From an uncultured Candidatus Peribacteria bacterium (lineage in GTDB: Bacteria > Patescibacteriota > Gracilibacteria > Peribacterales > Peribacteraceae), in contig CAYWJU010000002.1 in NCBI GenBank assembly GCA_964458645.1, forward strand, positions 67,033 through 131,032: 64,000 nt of DNA, in the 5' to 3' direction. Below, piece by piece: positions 8,601 to 58,616 of the stretch. A program made the translations under genes and the position numbers. How positions within the stretch are numbered: the first letter of the stretch is position 1; each line of letters opens with the position of its first letter. A model generated the notes under the pieces. It was not told the origin of the DNA. It did no database searches and saw nothing but the letters and a program-made list of their open reading frames with translations.

Positions 8601-8666
8601 TAGGACGAAGACGAAAAAGACTCCAGGACTCCAGGGCTTCAAAAAAATAGGAGAATCTCCGGAGTC
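8601..8666. repeat. GGANTCC-unit array (locus 1)
   Basis: GACTC at 8619 and 8627, GAATC at 8653, GAGTC at 8662. Confidence 0.6.
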
Positions 8667-8693
8667 AAAAAACGACCCATCAGGGTCGTTTTT
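8667..8693 (-). terminator. Rho-independent terminator downstream of glyQS
   Basis: Stem AACGACCC/GGGTCGTT with loop ATCA, flanked by A/T runs (bidirectional shape). Confidence 0.65.
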
Positions 8694-8710: not shown

Positions 8711-10138
8711 TTAGTTTTTGAGTTTTCCGATCAGCTCATCGATCGTCACACGCTCTTGTTTCAACGTGTCACGGTCGCGAATCGTCACGGTGTCCTTGGC
8801 GCCTTGTTCGGTGTCTTCGCCCAGCGTTCCGAAGTCGACGGTAATGCACTTGGGCGTGCCGGTTTCGTCTTGGCGGCGGTAGCGCTTGCCGATGCTTCCG
8901 GTGAGATCGAAATCAATCGTCAGGTCGGTTTCTTGAACAAGTTTTGTGTACACATCTTGAGCCTTGGCAACGAGGTGTTCCTTCTTGCTAAGCGGCAGAA
9001 TAGCTACGTCCACTGGGGCCATTTTCGGAGCGAATTTTAGCACCGTGCGCACGTCGTCTTCGGCTACTTTTTCCTCGTTGTACGCTTCCAGCAAGAGTGC
9101 CAACACGGCGCGCGTCAGACCGAACGTCGGCTCGACTACATACGGCAAAAACTTTTTCTTTGGGTCGTCCGGATCGGTGTACTTCAGGTCCTGCCCCGAG
9201 AACTTCTCGTGCTGTGTGAGGTCGAAATCCGAGCGGTTGGCCAAACCGAATAATTCCCCCCAACCCCACGGGTACATGTACTCGATGTCCAGTGTGCGGC
9301 TGGAGTAGTGCGACAACTCTTCCTTGGTGTGCTCGCGGATGCGCAGACGCTCGGCGGAAAGCCCGATGTCCAAGCACCACTGCCACATTGCATCTTTCCA
9401 CTTTTCGAAGTGGACGCCTTCCGTTCCCGGTTCGATGAAGTACTCGATTTCCATCTGCTGGAATTCACGGGTGCGGAATGTGAAGTTGCCGGGAGTGATC
9501 TCGTTGCGGAATACCGTGCCGACCTGCGCGATTCCAAACGGCAGGCGCTTGCGCATGGTTTGCGACACGCTCTTAAAGTCCACGAACATGCCTTGGGCCG
9601 TTTCCGGACGCAGGTAAATGTCGCTGCCTTCGCCTTCCACTACGCCTTGTTCGGTCTTGAACATGAGGCTGAACTTCTTGGCCACGGTCCAATCCACGCT
9701 TTTGCAGTTCGGGCAGGCGATCTTCTCGGCCATGAGCATCGGCTGCACCTGGTCGAGCTTCAGAATGGCTGCGGCCTCCACACCCATTTTTTCTTCAATG
9801 AGTTTGTCGCCGCGGAAGCGCTGCTTGCATTTCTTGCAGTCCACCAGCGGGTCGCCGAAGTTGCTGACGTGGCCGCTGGCTTCCCAGACTTTGGGGTTCA
9901 TAAGAATGCCGCTCTCCAAACCCACCATGTCTTGGCGGCTGCGGACGAAGCGGTTCCACCACAATTTCTGCACGCGGCTTTTCAGTTCCAATCCCAGCGG
10001 GCCGTAGTCCCAGGTGTTCGCCAGTCCGCCGTAAATCTCGGAGCCCGGAAACACGAATCCGCGGCGTTTGCAGAGCGAGACGATTTGGTCGAGGGTGGTG
10101 GCGGGCACGGGTGAGAGATGGGAAGCGGCCCAGAGCAT
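8711..10138 (-). CDS. glyQS: Glycine--tRNA ligase (homodimeric class II type)
   Basis: LDQIVSLCKRRGFVFPGSEIYGGLANTWDYGPLGLELK... and the class II core. The true start may be GTG at 10108 (VPATTLDQIV), because ATG 10138 lies inside a TGcTATGCT -10-like box. Confidence 0.95.
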   Translation of the reverse strand: MLWAASHLSPVPATTLDQIVSLCKRRGFVFPGSEIYGGLANTWDYGPLGLELKSRVQKLWWNRFVRSRQDMVGLESGILMNPKVWEASGHVSNFGDPLVDCKKCKQRFRGDKLIEEKMGVEAAAILKLDQVQPMLMAEKIACPNCKSVDWTVAKKFSLMFKTEQGVVEGEGSDIYLRPETAQGMFVDFKSVSQTMRKRLPFGIAQVGTVFRNEITPGNFTFRTREFQQMEIEYFIEPGTEGVHFEKWKDAMWQWCLDIGLSAERLRIREHTKEELSHYSSRTLDIEYMYPWGWGELFGLANRSDFDLTQHEKFSGQDLKYTDPDDPKKKFLPYVVEPTFGLTRAVLALLLEAYNEEKVAEDDVRTVLKFAPKMAPVDVAILPLSKKEHLVAKAQDVYTKLVQETDLTIDFDLTGSIGKRYRRQDETGTPKCITVDFGTLGEDTEQGAKDTVTIRDRDTLKQERVTIDELIGKLKN

Positions 10139-10158: not shown

Positions 10159-10197
10159 GCGGAGTCCAAGGAGTCTTGGCGTCACGGAGTCGCGTCC
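10159..10197. repeat. GGANTCC-unit array (locus 2)
   Basis: GAGTC at 10162, 10171 and 10187, between the divergent glyQS and ORF 10254. Confidence 0.6.
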
Positions 10198-10253
10198 TGC
10201 TTTATCAGAAGCCAAAAATCCGGTATACTGTATTCAATACCAATATCCAGTCC

Positions 10254-11552
10254 ATGCCTCCGGAGAGCCGTGAACCATTGAACGAGTCGCAGGATGCTCA
10301 CCTGAGAGTGAATCTGCCCGAACGCCCGAACCCGGCGCTGCCGTTTGCCGATGCCCAAAATAAAGAGCTGGATGCCGCCCGCGCGAAGTACTGGAAGGCA
10401 GCCGAGGATTGTTCGGTATTTCCGCTTACAGACGAAGCCAAAATCGCACTGCGACTCATCGGCGAATTAGGCCCCAAGCATTTCAAGGCTATTAACGACA
10501 AGTACGACAAAATCCGCACTCTGGTTGCCAGTTGCCAGCGGCGCATTGAGACCTCGCATGCGGAACTGGAAAAAACGAGAAAAGAACTGAAGGAGCTGAA
10601 CAAGCCTTTTGGACTGGTGCAAGAGTTGGTGGGCATGCGGAAGGTCATCTCAAAAGATGGAGTTGCCGAAGCGAATCTGATTCTCGATCTGGAGGATAGG
10701 ATAAAGGCACTCACGGCACTTGCTGATCCGTCCGTCCCGCCCGAATACGCGATGTATCAGCTGGACCAAATGACCGCTCCCGGTGCGGGAGTGCGCTATG
10801 ACTTTTCAGCTTCCGATGCTGCAAACAAGGACGTGAACAGGAAGGCCGACAAATGGGAGCAGAGCCTCGATGCGGTCGACCAGGCGGTCGGCATGGTCAG
10901 CAAGGCCGTTCCATGGGGCCCGGAGGTGTACATCGCCATGAAGTCGCTGGGTGGGACGATCGGCGGGGGTAACAGTGAAGAGATCATTCAGAAGAACATC
11001 CGGCAGTATCTGGAAATCCGCCTTGGCAAAGGCGCACGGGTAGCGTTGGCCGGAGCGGAGCACCACGATGAAATTCTGCTGGTGCTGAAGGAATCCGACA
11101 AACTGGCCGAAGTCATGCCCGAGTTGTTGCCACTGCTCGAAGAGGCCGCACCGGTTGCCGCTGATCAGGCAGAAAACAATGCGTCGCTGCTCACCAGGAA
11201 AATCCTCAAGGGATTCATCAAGCGAAAGTTCCCCAAGCTCGCTGCCGCGAAAGGGATTACCGAAGAACTCGTAGATGGCGCATCCGCCACCGATGCCGTT
11301 GCCGCCAATCGCAGGAACCTGCTCCGAGCTACCAAAAAGAGTGCTCCGGTCGTGAAAACAACCACCAACGTTGTTGCGGACGAAGCTGCGGGCAAGCTTC
11401 AGACCACTGAGTATAAAATCGACCGTTTCCAGAAAGCGGTGAAGGAAAAGATGGCCGAGCACGCAATTGATCCTGCGTTGCAGGCCGAAATTGAGCAGAC
11501 GTTGGCCGAAGTTCTCCGGGAGCGACTTGAGGCAGGGCAAAAGGCGAAATAG
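10254..11552 (+). CDS. Hypothetical protein, predicted coiled-coil rich
   Basis: Long ORF with host-like codon usage. The start was trimmed to ATG 10254 because the ORF-track start overlaps glyQS. No known motif. Confidence 0.6.
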   Translation: MPPESREPLNESQDAHLRVNLPERPNPALPFADAQNKELDAARAKYWKAAEDCSVFPLTDEAKIALRLIGELGPKHFKAINDKYDKIRTLVASCQRRIETSHAELEKTRKELKELNKPFGLVQELVGMRKVISKDGVAEANLILDLEDRIKALTALADPSVPPEYAMYQLDQMTAPGAGVRYDFSASDAANKDVNRKADKWEQSLDAVDQAVGMVSKAVPWGPEVYIAMKSLGGTIGGGNSEEIIQKNIRQYLEIRLGKGARVALAGAEHHDEILLVLKESDKLAEVMPELLPLLEEAAPVAADQAENNASLLTRKILKGFIKRKFPKLAAAKGITEELVDGASATDAVAANRRNLLRATKKSAPVVKTTTNVVADEAAGKLQTTEYKIDRFQKAVKEKMAEHAIDPALQAEIEQTLAEVLRERLEAGQKAK

Positions 11553-11618
11553 CCGACTTCCACGCTGGCAAGCCACCTACCGAGCATCGGTGTATTTCTT
11601 TATTTTAAGCCAAAAATC

Positions 11619-14934: not shown

Positions 14935-14940
14935 GCAACT

Positions 14941-14976
14941 CGCGAGAGGGAAACCCGCTGCGGTTTCCCTCTCGCG
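14941..14976 (+). terminator. Strong hairpin downstream of ctp
   Basis: Perfect 15-bp stem CGCGAGAGGGAAACC/GGTTTCCCTCTCGCG. There is no clear T-run. Confidence 0.5.
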
Positions 14977-15055
14977 GACTCTCCTTTCCCTGCGCGGAGC
15001 GGCTCCAGCGACGGGGCCCGCTAGACCCATCGCTTCGCCGCGCCTTGTAAAACGA

Positions 15056-15061
15056 TACAAT
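15056..15061 (+). promoter_or_regulatory. -10 box TACAAT, 7 nt upstream of ATG 15069
   Basis: Sequence match. It implies that the ATG at 15060 is not used. Confidence 0.45.
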
Positions 15062-15068
15062 GCCCTCC

Positions 15069-15641
15069 ATGCAAAAGCTCATCTTGGCCTCCGCCAGTCC
15101 GCAGCGCAAAACGCTCTTGTCTGGCCTTGGCGTAGAATTCGATGTCATCCCGAGCACCGTGGATGAAGAAGCCTGCACCGTTGTCGATCCGGCCGACCGG
15201 TCTGTCACGCTGGCGCGCCTGAAGGCCGAGGATGTTGCCGCCCGCAACCGCGGTGCGTTCGTCATCGGTTGCGACACGCTGGTGGTGGATAATAAGGGAG
15301 AGCGGCTGGAGAAGCCCGTGGATGAAGCGGATGCCCGCCGCATGCTGATGCTGCACGCCGGAACGCGCTCCACCGTGCACTCGGGCCTGTGTGTCATCAG
15401 TCCGTTCGGCGAAATGGAAGAGGGGATCTCGAGCTCGCATGTTTGGTTCAAAGAACTCAGCAAGCAAGACCTTGACTGGTGGATCGGCACCGGACAATGG
15501 AAAGACCGCTCTGGCGGATTCCAGATCGACGGGCTGGGTCAATTGATGATCGAGCGCATCGACGGCGACTGGACGAGCATCGTCGGTCTGCCGGTGTTCC
15601 TGCTGGGTCAGCTGCTCAACAAAAGCGGCTTCGATTTGTAA
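15069..15641 (+). CDS. maf: Maf-like nucleoside triphosphate pyrophosphatase
   Basis: LILASASPQRKTLL...VIGCDTLV...GGFQIDGLG motifs. Confidence 0.9.
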   Translation: MQKLILASASPQRKTLLSGLGVEFDVIPSTVDEEACTVVDPADRSVTLARLKAEDVAARNRGAFVIGCDTLVVDNKGERLEKPVDEADARRMLMLHAGTRSTVHSGLCVISPFGEMEEGISSSHVWFKELSKQDLDWWIGTGQWKDRSGGFQIDGLGQLMIERIDGDWTSIVGLPVFLLGQLLNKSGFDL

Positions 15642-15642
15642 T

Positions 15643-15735
15643 CAGGAATCCGAAGAAACCGACGAAGCCGACGACTCAGAGGAATGCAGTTGTTCATCGG
15701 ACTCTTTGGAGTCCTTGGATTCCTCGGAATCTACA
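15643..15735. repeat. GGANTCC-unit array (locus 3, about 10 units in a single 9-bp phase)
   Basis: GANTC at 15647, 15674, 15701, 15710, 15719 and 15728, all congruent modulo 9. The last four are GACTC, GAGTC, GATTC and GAATC. Confidence 0.75.
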
Positions 15736-15771
15736 AAAAGAACCAATGGTATCCAGAACCACTCCTGCTCT

Positions 15772-15987
15772 CTACATGTTGGAGTAATACTGGTTCTTGC
15801 GGTTCTGAGCGCGGAAACCTTCGCGCTTGAGGGCGCGGATACGCTGCAGACGGCGGGTGAGGGGCTTCTTGCGGTACTTGCGCTCGCGCAGGATCTTTAC
15901 GAAGCGTGCTTCCTGGACCTGCTTTTTAAAGCGGCCCTGCAAGCGGTCGTTCGATTCCTCGCCTTTTTTGATTGCGTAGACGGTCAT
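15772..15987 (-). CDS. rpsU: 30S ribosomal protein S21
   Basis: 71-aa basic protein ...NDRLQGRFKKQVQEARFVKILRERKYRKKP.... The start was trimmed to ATG 15987. Confidence 0.8.
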   Translation of the reverse strand: MTVYAIKKGEESNDRLQGRFKKQVQEARFVKILRERKYRKKPLTRRLQRIRALKREGFRAQNRKNQYYSNM

Positions 15988-16140: not shown

Positions 16141-17067
16141 TCAGAACGTCAGCACGCCCATCTGCTCGAGGTGGGCGAAGGTCTTGTCATAGAACACCCG
16201 CGCGTCGATGGCGGGCGGCAGCCCGACACCCAGCGGCGGAATCTCGTTGCGCGTGGCCTGCCCGAACGGCTCGGCTACGATCGGTCCTTCGTAGTTGGCG
16301 GCGGTGAGCGCCCGCCCGAAGAGGTACCAGTTGATCAGGTCGATGAAGCCCTGTTCGTACGTACCCGGCACGGATCGGAAGTCGCCGTGCGCGTGGACGT
16401 ACTTGAGGTACTTCGCCAGCAGAATGATCACGTCGTGGGGTACCTCACGCCGTTCCCGCATGTGGAACGTGTCGGCGTGGGCACCGATCTCGGGGTGGTC
16501 GATGAGCTGGAGGAGGTGTAGCAGTTCCGCGGCGGAACCGATCGCCCCCTCGTCCTCCCCGGGCCGCAGGTACTCCACCGCGACGGTGATACCCTGTCCG
16601 TCGATGATCTTGGCGACGCGCGCGTAGAACTGGCGGATGCGGTCGCGAATCACGCTTCGGCTCTGGCCGTAGCGCTGACCGAGAACGAAGCAGTTGGGTC
16701 CGGTGATGAACCGTACCTTCAGCCCGCCCGCCCGCAGCGCGTTGATGTAGTCCACGTCGGCTTGAAACGTGGCGACCGCGGCGGTGACCAAGTCCGGGTC
16801 GTTGGATAGCGGATCACCGCACGGCGGGATGCCGCCGGGGTTGCCGGGGTAGAACCGGCAGTAGGAGACGTGGTCGATGCCACCCGCCAGCACGGCTGCC
16901 GCGGTCTTGTCGGCAGGCGTCTGCAGGAGTGCAGTGCATGTCAGTTCGAGGAGCGTGCCCCCCGCCTGCTTCACGGTTCGCGCGGCGTTCGTCAGCCGGG
17001 GTTCATCACCCGGTTTGTACGTCGCGCCGAAGGCCAGCAGGTGGCCTCCGTAGGTTCGTCGGTTCAT
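16141..17067 (-). CDS. Sugar phosphate isomerase/epimerase (xylose-isomerase-like TIM barrel)
   Basis: Family-typical pattern ...VEYLRPGE...HADTFHM...YVHAHG...EPFG. Codon third positions are almost all G/C, unlike the neighbouring genes. Confidence 0.75.
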   Translation of the reverse strand: MNRRTYGGHLLAFGATYKPGDEPRLTNAARTVKQAGGTLLELTCTALLQTPADKTAAAVLAGGIDHVSYCRFYPGNPGGIPPCGDPLSNDPDLVTAAVATFQADVDYINALRAGGLKVRFITGPNCFVLGQRYGQSRSVIRDRIRQFYARVAKIIDGQGITVAVEYLRPGEDEGAIGSAAELLHLLQLIDHPEIGAHADTFHMRERREVPHDVIILLAKYLKYVHAHGDFRSVPGTYEQGFIDLINWYLFGRALTAANYEGPIVAEPFGQATRNEIPPLGVGLPPAIDARVFYDKTFAHLEQMGVLTF

Positions 17068-22672: not shown

Positions 22673-22792
22673 GCGAGTTCTCTCACTCAATCCACCAAAG
22701 GGGTGGCGTGCGCTGCGCGCGGGGGTCTGCTGGAGGGCGCTCAGCGCACACGCGCTTTTTGGTTCCTTTTTGTCGCTCGGACAAAAAGGAAC
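22673..22792 (+). repeat. Structured repeat element, copy 1 (candidate ncRNA or MITE-like)
   Basis: Near-identical to the reverse complement of 50425-50557. Hairpins CCACC-aaagg-GGTGG, GTGCGCTG...CAGCGCAC and a perfect 13-bp stem GTTCCTTTTTGTC-gctcg-GACAAAAAGGAAC. Confidence 0.7.
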
Positions 22793-24045: not shown

Positions 24046-26670
24046 ATGGTCTTCATCCTTCGATTGCTCTTCTGGCCCATCTTGCTCCTCGTCGTAGAGG
24101 TCTTCTCGTTTGTGTTTAATTTGGGCATTTGGTCGAGCTTTTGGAATTGGCTCGTAGAAGATATCGGCTGGATGACGACAGGAGGAAAAATTCTGTTGCT
24201 GGTCACCGCGTATTACCTCATCCGGTATTTCATTTTCTGGCTGCGGTTTACGTACGCTTGGCACGCGTCCAAGAAGCTTGTGTGCGTGAAGGTCATTCTT
24301 CCCCGCAGCGACAGTAAAATCGACCAAGAGAAGCGCACCGAAAAGGATTTCAAAGAAAAAATCGCCATCATGGAACAGTTGTTCCGTGCGCTGTATGAAG
24401 TGAAGGATCTTACGGTGTGGAACGTGATTGAATTTTGGATTACGCGTTTCATTACCATCAGCTTCGAGCTTGTGGTGGAAGAGGGTCTGATTTCATTCTA
24501 CGTGCTGTGCCCAAAGCGCTTGGAGTCCATTGTGGAAAAGCAAATCACATCGTTCTATCCGAATGCAGAAGTCATTCCAAAAAAGACGCCCGACATTTGG
24601 CCCAAAGGATACAAGCTGGTCGGGTACAACTTGCTCTGCCGCAAGTCGTACGAATACCCGTTGCGCTTTTACGACCACATGCAGGATGACCCGCTCAACG
24701 ACATTATCAACGTGCTTTCCAAGCTGAATCCCGATGAAACAGCCACCGTCCAGCTGATCATCACCCCCACGTTCACTGAGCATTGGTCCAAGCGTATTAA
24801 GGGCATTGCCAGCGAAAGCTTCAAGGGCCACAAGAAGAGCTTTATCCAGAAAATCCCGGGTCTTGGCTTCATCGGTACGGCCATCAACATGATCACCAGC
24901 GACGATGCCGCCAAGAACTTCGCCCCCGGCTCCAAGGGCGGCGATGCGTTCGTGCGCATGCTCCAGCCCGAGGAAGAATTGTTCAAGCGCATGGGCGAGA
25001 AGGCCGGAATGTCGGGCTACCACACCACCGTCCGCGTGCTGGCTGCCGCCAAGACGTGGGAGCGCGCGCTCGACATTACCAACAACTTGCAAGTTGCCTT
25101 CAACGTGTTCAAGGACATGTACGGCAATTACTTTAGGAACCGCCGCATGATGACGGACTTCATGCCGCTCGAAATCAATCAGAAGCTTATCTATCCGCTG
25201 TGGCTGCGCCGCATCAACGGCTATGCCCATGCCCGTAACCTGCTGACCGAAAAGGAATTGGCGTCCATCTACCACTTCCCAGACAGCCGCTACAACACCA
25301 TTCCGAACATCGACTGGGTCAAATACAAGATTCTTCCTCCTCCTCCGGTCGAATTCAAGTCGGGCGTCCAGCTCGGTATCAACCGCTTCCGCGGATTGGA
25401 AACCATGGTGCGCTTCATGGACAAAGACCGCACGCGTCACCAGTACATCATCGGTAAATCCGGTTCGGGTAAGTCTGCCTTGCTCAACTGGCAGTCGCGT
25501 CAGGACATCGCGAACGGCGCGGGTCTGTGCATCGTCGACCCGCACGGAGACCTGATCGAAGACGCTCTCGCCCACACCCCGAAGGAGCGCGCCAAGGACG
25601 TGATCGTATTTGATCCGGCCGACACCGAACGACCCATGGGCCTGAACATGCTCGAAGCCAAAACGTCGGAAGAGAAAGACCGTGCCTCGCTCGACGCGAT
25701 GGAAATCTTCATCAAGATGTTCGGTAACGAAATCTTCGGACCACGTATCCAGCACTACTTCCGCAACGGTTGTCTCACGCTGATGGACGACGAAGAGGAA
25801 GGTGCCACGCTCATCGACGTGCCGCGTCTGTTCGTGGATGACGAATTCCAGCGCTACAAGGTCAGCAAGTGCAAGAACTCGGTCGTGCGCGGCTTCTGGA
25901 GCAATGAAATGGCCAAGACGGGTGCACGTGAAAAAGAAGAAATGATCCCGTACTTCTCGGCCAAGTTCGGTCCGTTCGTGACGAACGCCACTATGCGCAA
26001 CATCATCGGACAACCCAAGTCGGCGTTCAACATCCGCGAAGTCATGGACACCGGCAAGGTGCTGCTGGTGAACCTGTCCAAGGGAAAAATCGGCGATACC
26101 AACGCTCAGCTGCTGGGACTCATCTTCGTGAACAAGGTGAACATGGCGGCCATGAGCCGCGCCGACATCCCGCAGAAAGACCGCAAGCGCTTCTACCTGT
26201 ACGTCGACGAGTTCCAGAACTTCATCACCGACGCATTCGCGACCATTCTCTCCGAAGCTCGTAAGTACGAACTCGGTCTGGTGATGGCCCACCAGTATAT
26301 CGGCCAGCTGGTCGGCAAGACCGAAGGCTACGGACAGGCCAGCTCCAAAATGCGCGACGCCGTGTTCGGTAACGTGGGTACCATCATGAGCTTTAAGATC
26401 GGTGCCGAAGACGCCGAGTACATGGCCAAAGAAATGGCTCCGGTCGTGTCCGAACAAGACGTCATCGGCATTCCGAACTTCAACTGCTACGTGAAGCTGA
26501 ACATCAACAACACTACGTCGCGTCCGTTCTCGCTGGCGACCATTTACGACGAGTCCGATCGAAACGAGAAGCTCGGTGCGCTCATTAAGGAATACAGCCG
26601 CATGAAGTACGGCCGCAAGAAGGTGTTCGTGGACCAGGAAATCGAGGATCGCATTGGAATCGCTAAGTAG
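24046..26670 (+). CDS. VirD4/TraD/TraG-like membrane-anchored P-loop ATPase, paralog B
   Basis: N-terminal TM helices. Walker A GKSGSGKS. IVDPHGDLIED, RPMGLNMLE, IFGPRIQHYFRNGCLTLM, Walker B-like FYLYVDEFQNF, LVMAHQYIGQL. Confidence 0.85.
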   Translation: MVFILRLLFWPILLLVVEVFSFVFNLGIWSSFWNWLVEDIGWMTTGGKILLLVTAYYLIRYFIFWLRFTYAWHASKKLVCVKVILPRSDSKIDQEKRTEKDFKEKIAIMEQLFRALYEVKDLTVWNVIEFWITRFITISFELVVEEGLISFYVLCPKRLESIVEKQITSFYPNAEVIPKKTPDIWPKGYKLVGYNLLCRKSYEYPLRFYDHMQDDPLNDIINVLSKLNPDETATVQLIITPTFTEHWSKRIKGIASESFKGHKKSFIQKIPGLGFIGTAINMITSDDAAKNFAPGSKGGDAFVRMLQPEEELFKRMGEKAGMSGYHTTVRVLAAAKTWERALDITNNLQVAFNVFKDMYGNYFRNRRMMTDFMPLEINQKLIYPLWLRRINGYAHARNLLTEKELASIYHFPDSRYNTIPNIDWVKYKILPPPPVEFKSGVQLGINRFRGLETMVRFMDKDRTRHQYIIGKSGSGKSALLNWQSRQDIANGAGLCIVDPHGDLIEDALAHTPKERAKDVIVFDPADTERPMGLNMLEAKTSEEKDRASLDAMEIFIKMFGNEIFGPRIQHYFRNGCLTLMDDEEEGATLIDVPRLFVDDEFQRYKVSKCKNSVVRGFWSNEMAKTGAREKEEMIPYFSAKFGPFVTNATMRNIIGQPKSAFNIREVMDTGKVLLVNLSKGKIGDTNAQLLGLIFVNKVNMAAMSRADIPQKDRKRFYLYVDEFQNFITDAFATILSEARKYELGLVMAHQYIGQLVGKTEGYGQASSKMRDAVFGNVGTIMSFKIGAEDAEYMAKEMAPVVSEQDVIGIPNFNCYVKLNINNTTSRPFSLATIYDESDRNEKLGALIKEYSRMKYGRKKVFVDQEIEDRIGIAK

Positions 26671-26757
26671 AGGATTCCGAGGACGCCGAAGAATCCGATG
26701 ATTCCGAAGAATGTTTTCGTCGTACTCTTCGGCTTCGCCGGTTTCTTCGGACTCTTG
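26670..26757. repeat. GGANTCC-unit array (locus 4, two arms in opposite orientation)
   Basis: GATTC at 26673, GAATC at 26691, GATTC at 26700, GACTC at 26750. The right arm runs directly into the -10 box of the next gene. Confidence 0.7.
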
Positions 26758-26764
26758 ATACACT
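26756..26764 (+). promoter_or_regulatory. Extended -10 TGaTACACT, 6 nt upstream of ATG 26771
   Basis: Sequence match with leaderless-type geometry. Confidence 0.5.
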
Positions 26765-26770
26765 GTCGCC

Positions 26771-27790
26771 ATGACTCGATCAGAGCATATTCAAATCTTC
26801 GTGGAAGAAATTTGGAGTTGGTACTCCCGCCACAAACGCACGCTTCCTTGGCGCGACTTGAAGGTGAAGGACGACACGCAGCGCGCCTATGCGGTGTTAG
26901 TTTCCGAAATCATGCTGCAGCAGACCCAGGTGCCGCGGGTCATTCCAGCGTTCAGGGCTTTCCTAGAGCGGTTTCCGACACTTGGCGATCTGGCCAAAGC
27001 CGGAAACGCCGACATCATTCGGCAGTGGAAGGGGATGGGCTACAACAACCGCGCTCTTCGCTTGCGCGATGCTGCCCGAACGATTGTGGAACAACATGGC
27101 GGAGTCTTTCCGAAGTCCATGGAAGAACTGCTGAACATCAGCGGCATCGGGCACTACACCGCGGCCGCCGTCCGCAACTTCGCATTCGGCATTCCGACTC
27201 CATGTCTGGATACGAATATCCGCCGCGTGCTGCACCGCACGTTCGTCGGCGCCGAGAATCCGGACGGTACGTGGAAGAAAGATGATGAGTACCTGCTGAA
27301 ACTTGCGGGGGAAGTCTTGGCAGTTGCGATCTCTCCCGTGAAGAAAAACAGAGGGTCCTCGGACTCCTTGGATTCTTTGGTTTCTTCGGAATCCGGTGGG
27401 CGTCACGGGCCGGCGGACTGGCACGCTGCCCTCATGGACTTCGGCTCCCTCGTCTGCACCAAACGCGCTCCAAAATGGGACATCTGTCCGTTGACAAACA
27501 GAGGCGCGATGTTGGCTGCCTATAAAGTAAAAGAAGGAACAAAAAAGTTGATCAAGAAGGAGCCTGGCCGCGAGATCGCGGGCAAGTTCGTCCCCAACCG
27601 CATCATCCGCGGACGGGTGGTGGACGCGCTGCGCGATCACCCCAAATTGTCCGCCGACCAGATCGGCAAGCGCGTGTGCGTGGACTGGACCATGGGCGAT
27701 CATCGCGCGTGGCTGACCGGCATCATCGCCGGACTGAAGCGTGACGGTGTTCTTTCCGATGCCGGCAACGGCTTCGCGCTCAAAGACTGA
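26771..27790 (+). CDS. mutY: MutY-like HhH-GPD adenine DNA glycosylase (no NUDIX-like C-terminal domain evident)
   Basis: LPWR...YAVLVSEIMLQQTQVPRVIPAFRAFLERFP...WKGMGYNNRALRL...ISGIGHYTAAAV...LDTNIRRVL. The Fe-S loop is VCTKRAPKWDICPLTNRG. Confidence 0.8.
   Translation: MTRSEHIQIFVEEIWSWYSRHKRTLPWRDLKVKDDTQRAYAVLVSEIMLQQTQVPRVIPAFRAFLERFPTLGDLAKAGNADIIRQWKGMGYNNRALRLRDAARTIVEQHGGVFPKSMEELLNISGIGHYTAAAVRNFAFGIPTPCLDTNIRRVLHRTFVGAENPDGTWKKDDEYLLKLAGEVLAVAISPVKKNRGSSDSLDSLVSSESGGRHGPADWHAALMDFGSLVCTKRAPKWDICPLTNRGAMLAAYKVKEGTKKLIKKEPGREIAGKFVPNRIIRGRVVDALRDHPKLSADQIGKRVCVDWTMGDHRAWLTGIIAGLKRDGVLSDAGNGFALKD
27352..27398. repeat. GGANTCC-unit array (locus 5) embedded in frame in the MutY-like CDS
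   Basis: GACTC at 27361, GATTC at 27370, GAATC at 27388. Translated as RGSSDSLDSLVSSESG. Confidence 0.7.
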
Positions 27791-44503: not shown

Positions 44504-45943
44504 GTGTCCAAACTCCATCCATTCGATCGGTATTCGCCGGTCACCGACGTCGTCGAACTCAAGCGAATGAGTGACTTGCCGTTGCGAAAATCAAAGCGTG
44601 TTAACACGCTGAAATCGAGTGTGGAGGACTTTAAAATTTGGGCCGGCACTAAACAGTGGAAGCTTGAGCCGGTGCCCTGGTGCAACGAGGCGTTCTATGT
44701 GGACCGCGAAAACCGCGACGAGGCACTTGGGAAAGATCTTCTCCATGTGCTCGGCCATACCTACATGCAGGAGGCGGCCAGTATGTTGCCAGTGGCACTG
44801 CTCGATCCCCAGCCTGGTGAGGTCATTCTAGATATGAGCTCGGCACCGGGCAGTAAGACCACCCAAATCGCCGCCAAGTTACAGAACAGGGGAGTGATCG
44901 TCGCCAACGACGTCCAAGAGAAGCGCATGTGGGCGCTGGCGTCCAACCTGCAGCGTAGCGGTGTGATGAACGTGGTGGTCACCAAGAAGGTCGGCCAGTG
45001 GTTCGCGCGCAGCATGACCGAACGCTTCGATCGCGTACTGTGCGATGCGCCATGCACCGCCCAAGGCACCGCCCGGAAGGATTCCGATGCACTGATGTAC
45101 TGTTCCGATGACAACATCGGCAAGATGGCTCGGCTCCAATTGGAGCTGCTTGAATCAGCCATTCATGCTACCAAAGTCGGTGGTCGAATCGTCTACTCAA
45201 CTTGTACGTTAACACCTGAAGAAAACGAGACTGTATTGGGCTTAATAATGAACAAATTTAGTGATCAATTAACGATTATTGATCCAACACCCGGCCTTGG
45301 GTTTGACTTGAGCAAGGCGCGCGAGGAATCCAAGCGCGTTCAGGATTGGATTCAGACCAAGCAGCAGTTCCCGGCGTTCCGCCTGTGGCCGCAAACCTAC
45401 GACACCGAAGGCTTCTTTGCTGCAGTCTTGGAGAAGCGTGCACCGACTCGCCATGCTGAAAGAATCGAAGGACCCTTTCCCAAGCTAGATATTCTTCCCA
45501 AGGCACGCCGTAAGGAGTGGATCGATGCAAACCAAGATTGGTACGGAGCCCCATTTGTAGAGGAAAACGAGGTTCTCTTCAGTAAGAAGGAAAACTTACA
45601 CATTATTACCCAGGAGGCGGCTGATTTCGCCATTCCGACCATGGCGTACATGGCAGGGTTGCCGTTCGGCAAGCAGACAGAACATGGCCTGGCACGCATG
45701 TCACATGAGATGGCAACTTTGCGTGGAGCTAGGGCTCGCGAGCATATTTTGCACCTGAATGAAGAACAGCGGAAGCATGCTCTTTCCGGTCGCGACATTC
45801 CCTACGATAATCCCGGTCATGGCGACCTCTTGTTGTCCATAGATCACCCTGCCGGGAAGCCCTTACTCTTAGGCAGGGGAATGCTTATGAAAGGCAGGAT
45901 TCTGAATCGTTTGCCGAGAGAGATTGTGAGGATGTTCAGTTAA
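44504..45943 (+). CDS. NOL1/NOP2/Sun-family rRNA cytosine-C5 methyltransferase (RsmB/RsmF-like)
   Basis: LDMSSAPGSKTTQIA, FDRVLCDAPCTAQGTARKD, GGRIVYSTCTLTPEENE. The ORF-track start is GTG; ATG 44567 is an alternative. Confidence 0.85.
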   Translation: MSKLHPFDRYSPVTDVVELKRMSDLPLRKSKRVNTLKSSVEDFKIWAGTKQWKLEPVPWCNEAFYVDRENRDEALGKDLLHVLGHTYMQEAASMLPVALLDPQPGEVILDMSSAPGSKTTQIAAKLQNRGVIVANDVQEKRMWALASNLQRSGVMNVVVTKKVGQWFARSMTERFDRVLCDAPCTAQGTARKDSDALMYCSDDNIGKMARLQLELLESAIHATKVGGRIVYSTCTLTPEENETVLGLIMNKFSDQLTIIDPTPGLGFDLSKAREESKRVQDWIQTKQQFPAFRLWPQTYDTEGFFAAVLEKRAPTRHAERIEGPFPKLDILPKARRKEWIDANQDWYGAPFVEENEVLFSKKENLHIITQEAADFAIPTMAYMAGLPFGKQTEHGLARMSHEMATLRGARAREHILHLNEEQRKHALSGRDIPYDNPGHGDLLLSIDHPAGKPLLLGRGMLMKGRILNRLPREIVRMFS

Positions 45944-45994
45944 GCATTCCAGGCATTTCAACAGGTCCAAGGGGTGCAAGGGAAAATATTAATC

Positions 45995-46033
45995 GTTGGA
46001 CTCCTCGGACTCTTCGGTTTCTTCGGACTCCTG
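45995..46033. repeat. GGANTCC-unit array (locus 6), fused to the dnaG -10 box
   Basis: GACTC at 45999, 46008 and 46026. Four tandem 9-mers TYGGWYTCY. Confidence 0.7.
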
Positions 46034-46039
46034 TATACT
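46034..46039 (+). promoter_or_regulatory. -10 box TATACT, 9 nt upstream of dnaG ATG 46049
   Basis: Sequence match. Confidence 0.5.
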
Positions 46040-46048
46040 CACTCTCCC

Positions 46049-47809
46049 ATGGACGCAAAAGACGACATCCGCGCACGGCTCCCGATCGAACAACTTGTCG
46101 CACAGTATTGTCAGCTACAGAAAAAAGGTCGCAATTACGTCTGTTTGTGTCCGTTCCATAACGACAAGAAGCCCAGCTTATTGGTATCGCCGGACAAGGG
46201 AATCGCGTACTGCTTTGCTTGCCAGAGCGGTGGCGACATCTTCTCCTTTACGCAGCGCATCGAAGGCGTCGATTTTCCGACCGCTCTTCGTATGTTGGCC
46301 GAAAAGACCGGCGTCGAGTTGCCCAAAGATAGGGCACGAGACACTGCACCAAGAATCGAGAAAGATGCAAAGGAGCGCATGAGGGACTGTCTCCAGAAGG
46401 CCTCTGAGTTTTATCAGGAGAAACTGAAGGCTGTACCGGCTGCATTCGAGTATGTACAGAGGCGTGGCGTTACAGAAGAGTTGCTGCAAACATTCGGTAT
46501 CGGCTACGCGCCAGATTCTTTTTCCGAAACATATGATCATTTATTGAAGGCTGGCTTCAGTCGTTCGGAAATTGTTGGTGCGGGACTTGGCATTCAAAAA
46601 GAATTGTCCGAAGAACGTATCTACGACCGTTTCCGCCACCGCATCATGTTCCCGATCGGTGACGCGCAGGGTCATATTATCGGCTTTGGCGGTCGCACTA
46701 TGGGCGACGCCGATGCGAAGTATGTGAATAGCCCCGATGGACCGCTGTATCACAAATCCACCGTGTTGTACGGATTGTTCCAGGCTCGCGATGCCATACG
46801 ACAGTCGCGCAATGTGCTTCTTGTGGAGGGCTACTTCGATGTCGTCGCTGCACACAAGGCCGGCGTGAAAAACGTCGTCGCCGTCAGCGGAACCGCGCTC
46901 ACCGAGGATCATGTGCGGTTGCTCAAGCGCTACGCCGATTCAGTCATCCTGTGCTTGGATCAAGATCGTGCCGGACGGCAGGCTGCTGACCGTGCGTTCC
47001 AGCTGCTGAGCAAGGCGCATACTCGCGTGCAGTCGGTTGCTATACCGTCCAAGGACCCTGACGAGCTTGTGCAGAAAGATGCAGCACTCTTCGCCACGAT
47101 TGTTGCAACCGCGGCGGTCGAATATGTGGAAGGCGTCATTGAGCAAATGCGAACCATGCCCGATATCTTGGAACCCAAAGGCCGCCTGCGGATTACCGAA
47201 ACGCTCTTTCCATTGCTTGGAGCAGTCCCGACGTCGGTGGAGCTGCGCTCCTATTTGGAAAAAATGACTGTGGCCTTCGGCATGCGTATTTCCGAAATAG
47301 AGGCCGACTTCCGCGCTTGGCGTGCCGGTGCAGAAACCCCCAGTCGCAAAGCCGAAGTCGTTGCCATTGCAGAGCAGACGCCGTTCAAGCGCATCCAGCT
47401 GTGCATCGGCCTTGCGATCGTGTACCCGCGTACGCGACCCATGCTTGCCGAGCTCATTCCACCCGACGAAGAAGATTGGAATCGCATTCGAGTGGCGTTG
47501 TCGACTGCGGATGCAAAGCTGTCCATCGAGGATATCCTCACTCTTGCCCAAGCCGATGGCGCCCTGAAAGAGCAGGTCGGCGTGCTGACCATGTACTGCG
47601 AAGAGAACTTCGCTCTGTGGGCAGAGGCAGTCGCCGTGCGTGAGATGAAAAAATTGTGCACCGCTACCAATCGCGAGTTGATGATCCGCAAGCAAAACGA
47701 AATCGTTACTGAACTGAAGGAAGCGCGTAAATCCGGCCGCGCAGACGAAGAAGTGCGCCTCCTGACGAAGTACCAGCAGGTGTTGAAGTTATCCAAAATG
47801 GCAGGTTGA
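46049..47809 (+). CDS. dnaG: DNA primase
   Basis: Zinc finger CLCPFHNDKKPSLLVSPDKGIAYCFACQSGGD. RNA polymerase core. TOPRIM LLVEGYFDV...LDQDRAG. The ORF-track N-terminal extension is a translation of the repeat array. Confidence 0.93.
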   Translation: MDAKDDIRARLPIEQLVAQYCQLQKKGRNYVCLCPFHNDKKPSLLVSPDKGIAYCFACQSGGDIFSFTQRIEGVDFPTALRMLAEKTGVELPKDRARDTAPRIEKDAKERMRDCLQKASEFYQEKLKAVPAAFEYVQRRGVTEELLQTFGIGYAPDSFSETYDHLLKAGFSRSEIVGAGLGIQKELSEERIYDRFRHRIMFPIGDAQGHIIGFGGRTMGDADAKYVNSPDGPLYHKSTVLYGLFQARDAIRQSRNVLLVEGYFDVVAAHKAGVKNVVAVSGTALTEDHVRLLKRYADSVILCLDQDRAGRQAADRAFQLLSKAHTRVQSVAIPSKDPDELVQKDAALFATIVATAAVEYVEGVIEQMRTMPDILEPKGRLRITETLFPLLGAVPTSVELRSYLEKMTVAFGMRISEIEADFRAWRAGAETPSRKAEVVAIAEQTPFKRIQLCIGLAIVYPRTRPMLAELIPPDEEDWNRIRVALSTADAKLSIEDILTLAQADGALKEQVGVLTMYCEENFALWAEAVAVREMKKLCTATNRELMIRKQNEIVTELKEARKSGRADEEVRLLTKYQQVLKLSKMAG

Positions 47810-50424: not shown

Positions 50425-50557
50425 GTCCCTTTTTGTCCGAGCGACAAAAAGGAACCAAAAAACGTGTGTGCGCTGAGCGCCCACGGCCGCTGCGGCGGCC
50501 AGACCGCAGGCCCCCGCGCGCAGCGCACACCACCCCTTTGGTGGCTTGAGCACTCGC
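50425..50557 (-). repeat. Structured repeat element, copy 2 (inverted relative to copy 1)
   Basis: The reverse complement aligns with 22673-22792. It carries an extra internal hairpin CTGCGG...CCGCAG. Confidence 0.7.
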
Positions 50558-50842
50558 GCCTTTGGTTCTTCTCGCTCACGTCTTCTCAGGGCCCGTAGTA
50601 CGGCAGAACCCTCGGCCGTTTCAAAGAGCTGATTCCTCACGCACAAGAAGCAGCCAGACGACAACGTCCATTCGGTTACGCATGGAGGGTAAGGGAGGTT
50701 CGGAGGGCCAAGGGAATCCCAAGGGGACTGCGCATCAAGCCTCTCGCTTCGCTCAAGTGCTTGCTGCTGGGAGCTGTGCTAGGTTCCCTGGTCCTCCGAG
50801 GAAGAATCTTTGGCAGCTTCAACAATGGATTGGCCAATGAAA

Positions 50843-58496: not shown

Positions 58497-58529
58497 CAGC
58501 AAAATGTGATGCCGTCACACTAGGAAAAA

Positions 58530-58558
58530 GGAGTCCAGGGACGCCGGGGAGTCCGGAG
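58530..58558. repeat. GGANTCC-unit array (locus 7) upstream of the ftsK promoter
   Basis: GAGTC at 58531 and 58549, 18 bp apart. Confidence 0.55.
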
Positions 58559-58616
58559 ATGGGTAAGCCATGGTTTCGACAATCTCTGGCGCCTCTGACT
58601 TCGCTGGCTTCCCTGT

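Follow-up and report, generated by a model that had tools for sequence, protein, structure and literature searches.

Clustered GANTC sites in a Candidatus Peribacteria genome as the probable by-product of a dispersed palindromic repeat

In 64,000 nucleotides of contig CAYWJU010000002.1 from an uncultured Candidatus Peribacteria bacterium, the whole stretch being referred to below as the window, GANTC sites occur in clusters with a regular 9-bp phase. These clusters are probably a by-product of a dispersed, non-coding palindromic repeat that is specific to the Peribacteria lineage, resembles REPINs and MITEs (small transposable elements bounded by inverted repeats), and is probably selfish or near-neutral. 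Confidence is high that there is a repeat family in which GANTC is incidental, and moderate as to how the repeat spreads and whether it is near-neutral. Contigs and loci other than the window are identified by handles of the form L001.

The original prediction, which was made from the letters of the window, described four consecutive units between maf and rpsU that carry all four variants of the central GANTC base at 9-bp spacing. Direct reading confirmed this: the last four units of this element, called E1, are GGACTCT, GGAGTCC, GGATTCC and GGAATCT. The presence of all four variants in one E1 array indicates that the central base is free. Conserved GG..C flanks had also been proposed; GG was always found upstream, but the downstream base was either C or T. 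All six GANTC sites in E1 were in a single 9-bp phase as predicted, with starts at 15646, 15673, 15700, 15709, 15718 and 15727, each one base lower than the coordinates first given. The remaining clusters were all present at the positions proposed for them:

8619, 8627, 8653 and 8662 (the first pair 8 bp apart, not 9)
10162, 10171 and 10187
26673, 26691, 26700 and 26750
27362, 27371 and 27389
45999, 46008 and 46026
58531 and 58549

Autocorrelation across the window, which had been suggested as a check on the phasing, gave 8, 7 and 8 pairs of GANTC sites at distances of 9, 18 and 27 bp, compared with means of 1.2, 1.1 and 1.2 in 300 order-3 Markov simulations. The 9-bp phasing of GANTC in the window is real and far beyond chance. 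There was no enrichment of GANTC in the window as a whole, in which 247 sites were counted versus 290 ± 17 in shuffled sequences and 271 ± 15 in Markov sequences. The excess that the comparison of observed and expected counts was meant to reveal was thus not found: sites were slightly depleted overall, and coding DNA (3.54 per kb) had the same density of them as intergenic DNA with the arrays excluded (3.46 per kb). The arrays, 360 bp in total, held 25 of the 35 intergenic GANTC sites. Even within the arrays the motif was not universal, being present in 16 of the 24 units and missing from one third of them.

The arrays are made of a 9-nt unit, YTYGGNNTC, whose opposite strand reads GANNCCRAR. 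An arm is approximately 36-40 nt long, usually with about four units, and in the window genome it approximates TCGGACTC-YTYGGNTTC-TTYGGTTTC-TTCGGANTC-CTG. The full element is approximately 90 nt and consists of two inverted arms around a spacer of about 10-25 nt; arms were also found solo, and these are half-elements. Paired elements fold, as single-stranded DNA or RNA, into long imperfect hairpins of about 90 nt. A family of REP-like imperfect hairpins had been offered originally as an alternative, and both the folds and the arm-profile search agree with its arms of opposite polarity around a short spacer; the terminator or insulator role that came with it would at most be a plausible secondary one. 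The arm profile identified six strong arms at four loci in the window (E from 1e-8 to 1e-11) and two weak matches (58529-58559 and 10162-10175), and did not recover the hairpin at 8619-8666. Accordingly, among the "seven or more loci" first proposed, four are clear members of the family and the other three are looser relatives of the GGAGTC type. Six of the seven loci were intergenic. The elements of the window were as follows:

15643-15735: E1, a complete pair of inverted arms, with the maf stop codon (15639-15641) on one side and the 3' end of rpsU (15772) on the other
15644-15685: purine-rich arm of E1, strong, with units GAATCCGAA GAAACCGAC GAAGCCGAC GACTCAGAG
about 15686-15691: loop of E1
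15692-15732: pyrimidine-rich arm of E1, strong, with units ATCGGACTC TTTGGAGTC CTTGGATTC CTCGGAATC
26670-26757: E2, likewise a complete pair of inverted arms, which separates the TraG/VirD4-like gene (stop codon at 26668-26670) from the -10-like box of the MutY-like gene
26671-26712: purine-rich arm of E2, strong
26715-26755: pyrimidine-rich arm of E2, strong
27340-27394, + strand: element in the MutY-like (HhH-GPD) coding sequence, encoding VKKNRGSSDSLDSLVSSES in a hypervariable linker
27356-27394: strong pyrimidine-rich arm of this in-gene element
45991-46032, + strand: strong solo pyrimidine-rich arm upstream of dnaG, with four units GTTGGACTC CTCGGACTC TTCGGTTTC TTCGGACTC
58529-58559, - strand: weak solo array GGAGTCCAG GGACGCCGG GGAGTCCGG upstream of ftsK (position weight matrix score 19.8; arm-profile E 0.43)
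10162-10191: GGAGTC-type array (GGAGTC CAA GGAGTC TT GGCGTC AC GGAGTC), placed in the divergent spacer that separates glyRS from an inserted, window-specific segment
8619-8666: small hairpin of GACTCC and GGAGTC units, GACTCCAGGACTCCAGG ... GGAGAATCTCCGGAGTC (fold z -2.6)

The two arms of E1 were 71% complementary (arm-profile E 6e-10 and 5e-11) and the element had a fold z of -3.7 for the + strand and -3.3 for the - strand; the arms of E2 were 72-80% complementary (E 3e-11 and 8e-9; fold z -3.5). Imperfect complementarity had been noted originally, at only about 65%. The pyrimidine-rich arm within the MutY-like gene was likewise strong (E 2e-11; fold z of the element -2.0) and may have a decayed purine-rich partner at approximately 27340-27358. 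The solo arm at dnaG (E 3e-11) sits between the stop codon of the rsmB-like gene and the dnaG -10 box.

Arms within the window were approximately 70-85% alike, and the loops were unrelated. An exact 12-mer, GGTTTCTTCGGA, occurred in four copies, one at each strong locus and always in the outermost two units, and was found in none of 100 shuffled sequences. When reverse-complemented, the purine-rich arm of E1 agreed with the pyrimidine-rich arm of E2 in 28 of 33 positions, counted from the alignment. Unit variants that are specific to a position in the arm, such as the shared 12-mer, suggest copying of whole arms. A search of the whole window against Rfam at the gathering thresholds gave no match, no conserved GTAG head was seen in the alignment of the arms, which are tandem arrays of the 9-nt unit and not palindromes, and there was no insertion sequence within the 64-kb window.

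Paired elements were counted in the window (E1 and E2), in L060 and L073, and in seven metagenome contigs, one of which (L133) has two. Among the matches listed, the purine-rich arm came first in all 12 pairs and the opposite order was never found; 9 of their arms had three units, 14 had four and 1 had six, so that 23 of the 24 arms had three or four. Fold z-scores ranged from -2.75 to -8.8 over 14 folds (13 elements, with E1 folded on both strands); those of the window elements were between -3.3 and -3.7, and those of the better-preserved elements of relatives between -5 and -8.8. Elements were found between convergent, tandem and divergent genes (the last in L080 and L133b), and in frame within coding sequence.

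The metagenome pairs came from a scan of metagenome and viral contigs for three phased units. Among the matches listed, eight inverted pairs with exactly the architecture seen in the window were found in seven metagenome contigs, and none was found among the 217 viral arrays. In L138 there were six perfect GAAACCGAA units, a loop and then TTCGG... units. The unit TTCGGTTTC was retained in genomes that differ in G+C content. In one metagenome contig of 68% G+C (L134, 2060-2250), inner inverted arrays of GACGCCAAG and CTTGGCGTC were nested in outer inverted arrays of the GGATTTCCTGGTTTCC type. Long open frames contained 139 of the 171 metagenome arrays listed, from hosts of widely varying G+C, and 81-93% of the arrays listed across the metagenome and viral sets. 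This is in keeping with ordinary low-complexity coding DNA, in which the three-unit pattern is widespread among organisms and viruses alike, and pattern matches outside the Peribacteria are uninformative for the family. Of the matches listed, the eight inverted pairs of the metagenome set were the informative ones. A position weight matrix scan for arrays gave no matches in 897 kb of non-Peribacteria loci versus seven in the 64-kb window, and L073 also matched.

Reference genomes scanned with the Maf protein placed the window in Candidatus Peribacteria (Peregrinibacteria, candidate phyla radiation), and a look-up of proteins identical to this Maf gave no match. Comparison with Peribacteria relatives, among which Maf identity was 94% (L001) and 81% (L002) in syntenic ones and 60-69% in more distant ones, showed that the GANTC motif is not conserved in the repeat and that the elements turn over. 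In paired elements outside the clade of the window, GANTC was present in only 17 of 66 units (26%) among the matches listed, and GGTTTC, present in 30, was dominant. The original argument that selection acts on the GANTC/GGANTCC motif itself is not upheld by these units. At the maf-rpsU spacer there were at least four forms among contigs with an identical RpsU protein:

130-nt type, that of the window: identical in four contigs
71-nt type: only GGAGTCTTGGAGAC
83-nt type: four units of the pyrimidine arm and no partner arm
80-nt type

Alignment showed that a 49-nt block, made up of one arm and the loop, is unique to the window type and missing from the other three types despite the identical RpsU. 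In L002 the same spacer has a hairpin of AAAGACGTC / CTTGTCATC units without GANTC. The spacer between the traG-like and MutY-like genes has a two-armed hairpin in the window, in L060 (with TTTGGACTC units) and in L002 (with TCCCCTGAN units). The dnaG array was kept in L194 and L197 (98% DnaG identity), nearly identical in the closest lineage, L194, and was absent from L198 and L200 (70-71% DnaG identity), while the promoter and leader TATACTCACNCTCCCATG were present in all four. Upstream of ftsK, the spacer is two-armed in L194 and has a weak solo array in the window; the hairpin of L194 was discarded as evidence because its fold was too weak (z -1.3). The array at 10162-10191 was conserved in L001, and L002 has a larger hairpin, GGAGTCAGG.../...CCCCTGTTT, instead. 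The hairpin at 8619-8666 had a variant in L001 and was absent from L002. Thus orthologous spacers were occupied by differing arrays in L001/L060, L002 and L194. The expectation that relatives would have the arrays at orthologous positions was borne out in so far as hairpins were found at several of the same spacers, but their units differed and some spacers had none.

Further from the window, a distant member of the Peribacteraceae (L073, 58% identity in the MutY-like protein) has an inverted pair of 9-nt units upstream of nusB. At 5097-5198 of L071, the spacer between a gene for a 61-aa protein and nusB contains inverted telomere-like TTAGGG/TTGGGG arrays with the G-rich arm first. The 9-nt-unit element of L073 and these arrays of L071 are at orthologous positions. 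Arrays also adjoin rpmB among the relatives and contigs examined.

Some elements are translated. The 9-nt period corresponds to three codons and stop codons are few, which makes in-frame occupancy possible, and the in-frame elements read as a Lys/Pro-rich or acidic stretch followed by a Ser-rich stretch. In L116 a whole element lies in frame within tgt (Pfam TGT, E 4e-122), where residues 176-197 of the protein (LKKPKKPRSPKIIGSSSVSSAS) are an insertion of 22 aa that a solved TGT lacks: the sequence on either side of it aligns to residue 177 of that structure. In the MutY-like protein of the window, the HhH-GPD core is joined to the conserved WHAALMDFGS block by a linker, part of which the array encodes; in a protein alignment across Peribacteria, this linker varied from about 0 to 60 aa and was of low complexity, with a composition specific to each species. 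A hairpin in the MutY-like linker of L071 was set aside because its fold (z -1.2) was too weak to serve as evidence. In L073 (13983-14213), a secreted protein with an LTD domain has two Ser-rich linkers, SSASSVSSDSSDSS and SSVSSDSSVSSVSS, made of the same 9-nt unit (TCCTCGGNT), and the wobble positions in these linkers are more uniform than coding alone demands. This hints that array DNA and protein linkers may exchange material.

If the arrays are a dispersed palindromic repeat, as we favour, arms would be copied as modules from locus to locus, whole 9-nt units would be gained and lost by slippage, the hairpin would keep both arms complementary, and elements would survive in tolerant protein loops. 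The GGANTC form arises because the window species prefers A at the first N of GGNNTC. We infer that either a trans-acting enzyme or gene conversion does the copying and that the repeat is near-neutral; roles in transcript ending, insulation or promoter spacing are plausible as secondary ones. Several observations weigh against this reading. No transposase or RAYT-like gene was identified by Pfam among the open reading frames of the 64-kb window, and no target-site duplication was evident at the 49-nt maf-rpsU indel. Arms that are approximately 70-85% alike, with unrelated loops, are unlike a recently active MITE or REPIN population. The intergenic hairpins of L071 each have their own sequence and retain the purine-first polarity, which speaks for a mutational process, or for selection that acts on structure or composition, and not for copying from one master. 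Strict purine-first polarity is not accounted for by simple selfish spread, and the occupation of the same spacers across species could mean that the hairpins are functional.

The fixed polarity fits selection for hairpins at the transcript ends of both strands, and it also fits the building of arrays on 3' ends. A more speculative proposal, to which we give a low probability, is that the elements represent an undescribed class of palindromic repeat in Peribacteria and perhaps in other lineages of the candidate phyla radiation (CPR), with three-codon units that hardly ever create a stop codon and a strictly fixed polarity, the purine-rich strand running 5' to 3' inward on either side as in two telomere-type arrays fused head to head. 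In this class a dedicated enzyme, in place of classical transposition, would add or copy units onto 3' ends at breaks or hairpins, and the repeat would seed protein linkers. If true, this would amount to a distinct propagation mechanism, together with new Lys/Pro-rich, acidic and Ser-rich linkers in essential proteins of a streamlined genome.

Clustered GANTC sites were originally interpreted as targets of a CcrM/HinfI-type N6-adenine methyltransferase, and the arrays as landing pads beside promoters of replication and division genes. The concentration of 25 sites in 360 bp, the occurrence of all four central bases in one array and the position of arrays near dnaG, ftsK, the MutY-like gene and glyRS are consistent with this, and the alpha-proteobacteria provide a precedent in the intergenic repeats called CIR, which bear GANTC (PMC10969869). 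However, GANTC outside the arrays was not enriched and overall it was somewhat depleted, it was missing from one third of the units in the window and from three quarters of those in related elements (among the matches listed), and the orthologous arrays of L002 (maf-rpsU) and L071 are without it. Because the repeat in relatives mostly lacks GANTC, a methylation signal is improbable, and taken together with the remaining evidence we regard it as very improbable. The search for an enzyme also gave nothing: no DNA methyltransferase domain was found by Pfam in any open reading frame of the window, and a motif scan found no convincing DPPY-type frame in approximately 390 kb (partly redundant) of mostly Peribacteria loci plus six unassigned contigs with paired elements. 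Nor are the neighbours of the arrays specific to replication or division, since they include maf/rpsU, nusB and rpmB, and arrays also lie inside tgt and the MutY-like gene. At dnaG the promoter and leader were conserved in four species and the array was found in only two, so the array is dispensable at a conserved promoter and the landing-pad proposal finds no support there. Another idea is that the arrays are phased sites for a DNA- or RNA-binding protein (a ribbon-helix-helix or nucleoid-type protein polymerising along short direct repeats, or an RNA binder such as CsrA with the repeated GGA as its target) that modulates nearby promoters or leaders. The regular 9-bp spacing, the conserved GG..TC core, the approximately four units per array and the fixed head-to-head order would suit such a protein, as would the maintenance of the unit TTCGGTTTC across genomes of differing G+C; arrays adjoin the -10-like boxes of dnaG and the MutY-like gene, and comparable ideas have been voiced for the TAACTGA heptamer repeats (PMC4679880). 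Nevertheless, arrays appear and disappear at promoters with a conserved core, quite different units are found at the same sites in related species, some arrays lie within coding DNA or where two convergent genes end, the analysis identified no candidate for the binding protein, and the genes next to the arrays share no class. Control by a binding protein is quite unlikely.

The hairpins might instead be selected for their effect on RNA, as bidirectional factor-independent terminators, insulators, or stem-loops for RNA stabilisation or processing. As terminators, they would owe their polarity to a purine-rich 5' arm and a U-rich 3' arm, with the outer U-rich units serving as the U-tract once the inner stem had formed, and their construction from tandem units would be incidental. 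This explanation is unlikely, though several observations accord with it. E1 lies between convergent genes and E2 between a stop codon and the next promoter, all 12 pairs among the matches listed have an A/G-rich arm followed by a U/C-rich arm, as in a bidirectional terminator, and a hairpin is kept at orthologous spacers of different species though its sequence has been replaced. L138 has UUUUU after the stem, and a scan with a terminator consensus flagged TCGGCTTCGCCGG followed by TTTCTTCGGA within E2. The sites found by that scan were no more frequent than expected by chance, however, and a U-tract after the stem is absent from both window pairs, E1 being followed by CUACAAAAAG (an A-run on the + strand) and E2 by UUGAUACACU; for these reasons a canonical intrinsic terminator was rejected for E1 and E2. 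Elements were also found between divergent genes (L080, L133b) and in frame in tgt and the MutY-like gene, positions in which a terminator would do harm; there are solo arms without a partner; and an element may be missing in close relatives in which the neighbouring genes persist. When fold stability and G-U pair counts were compared between strands, the sense strand gave the more stable fold in six of eight elements between tandem genes, which was not significant. It is highly improbable that the arrays are low-complexity coding sequence, or remnants of it, with Ser-, Asp- and Glu-rich repeats of three codons. The period of three codons, the stop-free frames, the SSVSSDSSD linkers encoded by the unit in the LTD-domain protein of L073, the 81-93% of listed metagenome and viral matches inside long open frames, and an open frame (MVLFVDSEESKDSKESDEQLHSSESSASSVSSDS) that crosses E1 on the - strand all point that way. 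On the other hand, the genes on either side of E1, E2 and the dnaG array are conserved, and orthologues fix where they end. Coding repeats, moreover, do not show arms paired in inverted orientation or a fixed polarity, and there were no pairs among the 217 viral arrays listed. The small open reading frame across E1 (15642-15746, - strand) was dismissed as a gene, having only a TTG start and being absent from strains with identical RpsU. Lastly, a G-quadruplex or i-motif action has been proposed for four-unit GGGNATC repeats of Xanthomonas and Nostoc, and circular dichroism data show quadruplex formation by GGGAATC repeats (PMC4692102). Four is also the modal number of units here, and relatives have regularly spaced tracts of three or four G, namely GGGGAGTCA in L002 and TTAGGG/TTGGGG in L071. 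A complementary arm nearby would compete by forming the hairpin, and a stable quadruplex is not expected in the window genome because its units have only GG and the purine-rich arm (GAAACCGAA) has no G-tract. The quadruplex reading was rejected for the window genome on this ground, and as an explanation of the family it is extremely unlikely.

In behaviour, the closest published counterpart is a class of G-rich tandem heptamers, GGGAATC in Xanthomonas and GGGGA(C/T)T in Nostoc, which takes in the STRR type of cyanobacteria (Rehm et al. 2015, PMC4692102). Like the repeat of Peribacteria, these are short tandem units dispersed at many intergenic sites with a modal number of four, with many convergent inverted pairs able to form stem-loops. 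Their purine- or G-rich strand is the coding strand after stop codons and the non-coding strand before start codons, related species mostly have them at matching intergenic sites, though their sequence and length vary, and they have no associated mobile-element gene, as was also the case in the window, and no known function (PMC4692102). The Xanthomonas unit likewise contains GAATC (PMC4692102). In contrast to these repeats, the unit in Peribacteria is 9 nt and not 7, the window units have no tracts of three or four G, the arms have position-specific unit variants, there are coding copies in frame, and the host is a CPR bacterium with a small genome.

REPINs, like the Peribacteria elements, have two inverted copies of approximately 35-40 nt with a short spacer between them, and the hairpin that results measures about 100 nt (Bertels and Rainey 2011, PMC3116915; PMC3337134). 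They are also intergenic, lineage-specific and long-lived within a lineage, and their singlets resemble decayed halves (PMC3116915; PMC3337134). The Peribacteria arm differs in being a tandem array and not a small palindrome and in having no GTAG-type head; there was no RAYT in the window, the copies are more diverged than those of a typical REPIN population, and there are in-frame coding insertions. Compared with a MITE, the arms act as long terminal inverted repeats, and there was no target-site duplication at the 49-nt indel. Rickettsia palindromic elements (RPEs) are palindromic repeats that are tolerated in frame and translated in housekeeping genes (PMC10969869), for which the counterparts here are the elements in tgt of L116 and in the MutY-like gene of the window. 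Unlike the repeat of Peribacteria, RPEs are approximately 150 bp long, lack a tandem substructure, specify a peptide that is conserved and occur only in Rickettsia (PMC10969869), while the Peribacteria elements are mostly intergenic and encode a low-complexity peptide. Homology to the RPE families is unlikely given the host and the tandem substructure. CIR is similar in being an intergenic repeat family whose copies contain GANTC (PMC10969869). In the Peribacteria repeat, by contrast, GANTC is not conserved in the family, there was no GANTC signal outside the arrays of the window, and no CcrM-type enzyme was found in the sequence examined; the hosts of CIR are alpha-proteobacteria, to which Peribacteria are unrelated. 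The TAACTGA direct repeats of Beggiatoaceae, cyanobacteria and Bacteroidetes have another unit and period, almost never occur as inverted pairs, and have been proposed to act in translation (MacGregor 2015, PMC4679880). No description of dispersed repeats in Peribacteria, and nothing relevant on GANTC in the CPR, was found in the literature searched.

The genes next to the elements were identified by Pfam:

8711-10138, - strand: class II aminoacyl-tRNA synthetase, whose orthologue in L060 is called GlyRS
15060-15641: Maf
15772-15987, - strand: RpsU
24046-26670: TraG/VirD4-like ATPase
26771-27790: HhH-GPD (MutY-like) glycosylase
44504-45943: RsmB-like methyltransferase
46049-47809: DnaG
56252-58483, - strand: FtsK

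The starts of two of these genes are preceded by promoter-like sequences that adjoin or lie close to array arms:

26756-26773, + strand: extended -10-like box of the MutY-like gene, TGATACACT, adjoining the E2 arm, 6 nt before the ATG
46034-46051, + strand: TATACT -10-like box, 9-nt leader CACTCTCCC and dnaG ATG, kept in four species

L060 carries TGGTAGGCT at the place of the MutY-like -10-like box. A dnaG start at 46049 fits the data because all DnaG homologues are approximately 585 aa long. The dnaG start region, TATACTCACNCTCCCATG, consists of the -10-like box, a C-rich leader of 9 nt and the ATG, without a Shine-Dalgarno sequence, and is conserved in the window, L194, L198 and L200. This arrangement suggests that the MutY-like gene may have a near-leaderless promoter and that the dnaG and MutY-like transcripts may be leaderless or near-leaderless; as a caveat, AAGGAGT is over-represented elsewhere in the window. 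At the start region of the synthetase gene (10108-10138, - strand), the upstream ATG is out of frame in L001, which has an ATG in place of the GTG where the conserved MPATTLDQ begins. This gene probably starts at the GTG near 10108 and not at the ATG at 10138.

Several further features were observed in the window. A terminator of the classical type, with an A-run, stem and T-run, lies at 8668-8692, directly downstream of the 8619-8666 hairpin. A 1.37-kb segment (10228-11595) is absent from the closest relative, L001, and is flanked on both sides by promoter-like copies of AAGCCAAAAATCYGSTATAMT; there were no Pfam matches in its open frames. Directly after the gene for an S41 peptidase is a perfect stem-loop with a 16-bp stem (14940-14977, CGCGAGAGGGAAACC gctgc GGTTTCCCTCTCGCG) and no T-run, which may be a terminator of a non-canonical type. 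A xylose-isomerase-like TIM-barrel gene (AP_endonuc_2, 16141-17067) beside rpsU is present or absent among contigs with identical RpsU, and is a strain-level presence/absence polymorphism. There is also a second, unrelated palindromic repeat family, with copies at 22680-22780 (+ strand) and 50435-50560 (- strand) that are approximately 100-125 nt long, approximately 85-95% identical and both apparently intergenic. Its core is CCACCAAAGGGGTGGYGTGCGCTGCGCGCGGGGG ... GGGCGCTCAGCGCACACRCGYTTTTTGGTTCC, and one copy has an extra central segment of 19 nt.

These results indicate that striking clusters of a known methylation motif can arise simply from the consensus of a repeat family, and that a check of relatives settles the question. 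For annotation, the elements create spurious open reading frames and lengthen gene calls. The genome is a small, tightly packed one of the CPR, and the window still has two families of hairpin repeats, one of which has colonised the spacers beside essential genes and the loops of conserved enzymes. The three-codon unit, the near-constant number of four units per arm, the purine-first polarity and the replacement of units at one spacer between sister species are puzzles, and the tandem repeats of Xanthomonas and cyanobacteria pose the same ones; Peribacteria, with small genomes and many sequenced relatives, are a tractable group in which to study them.

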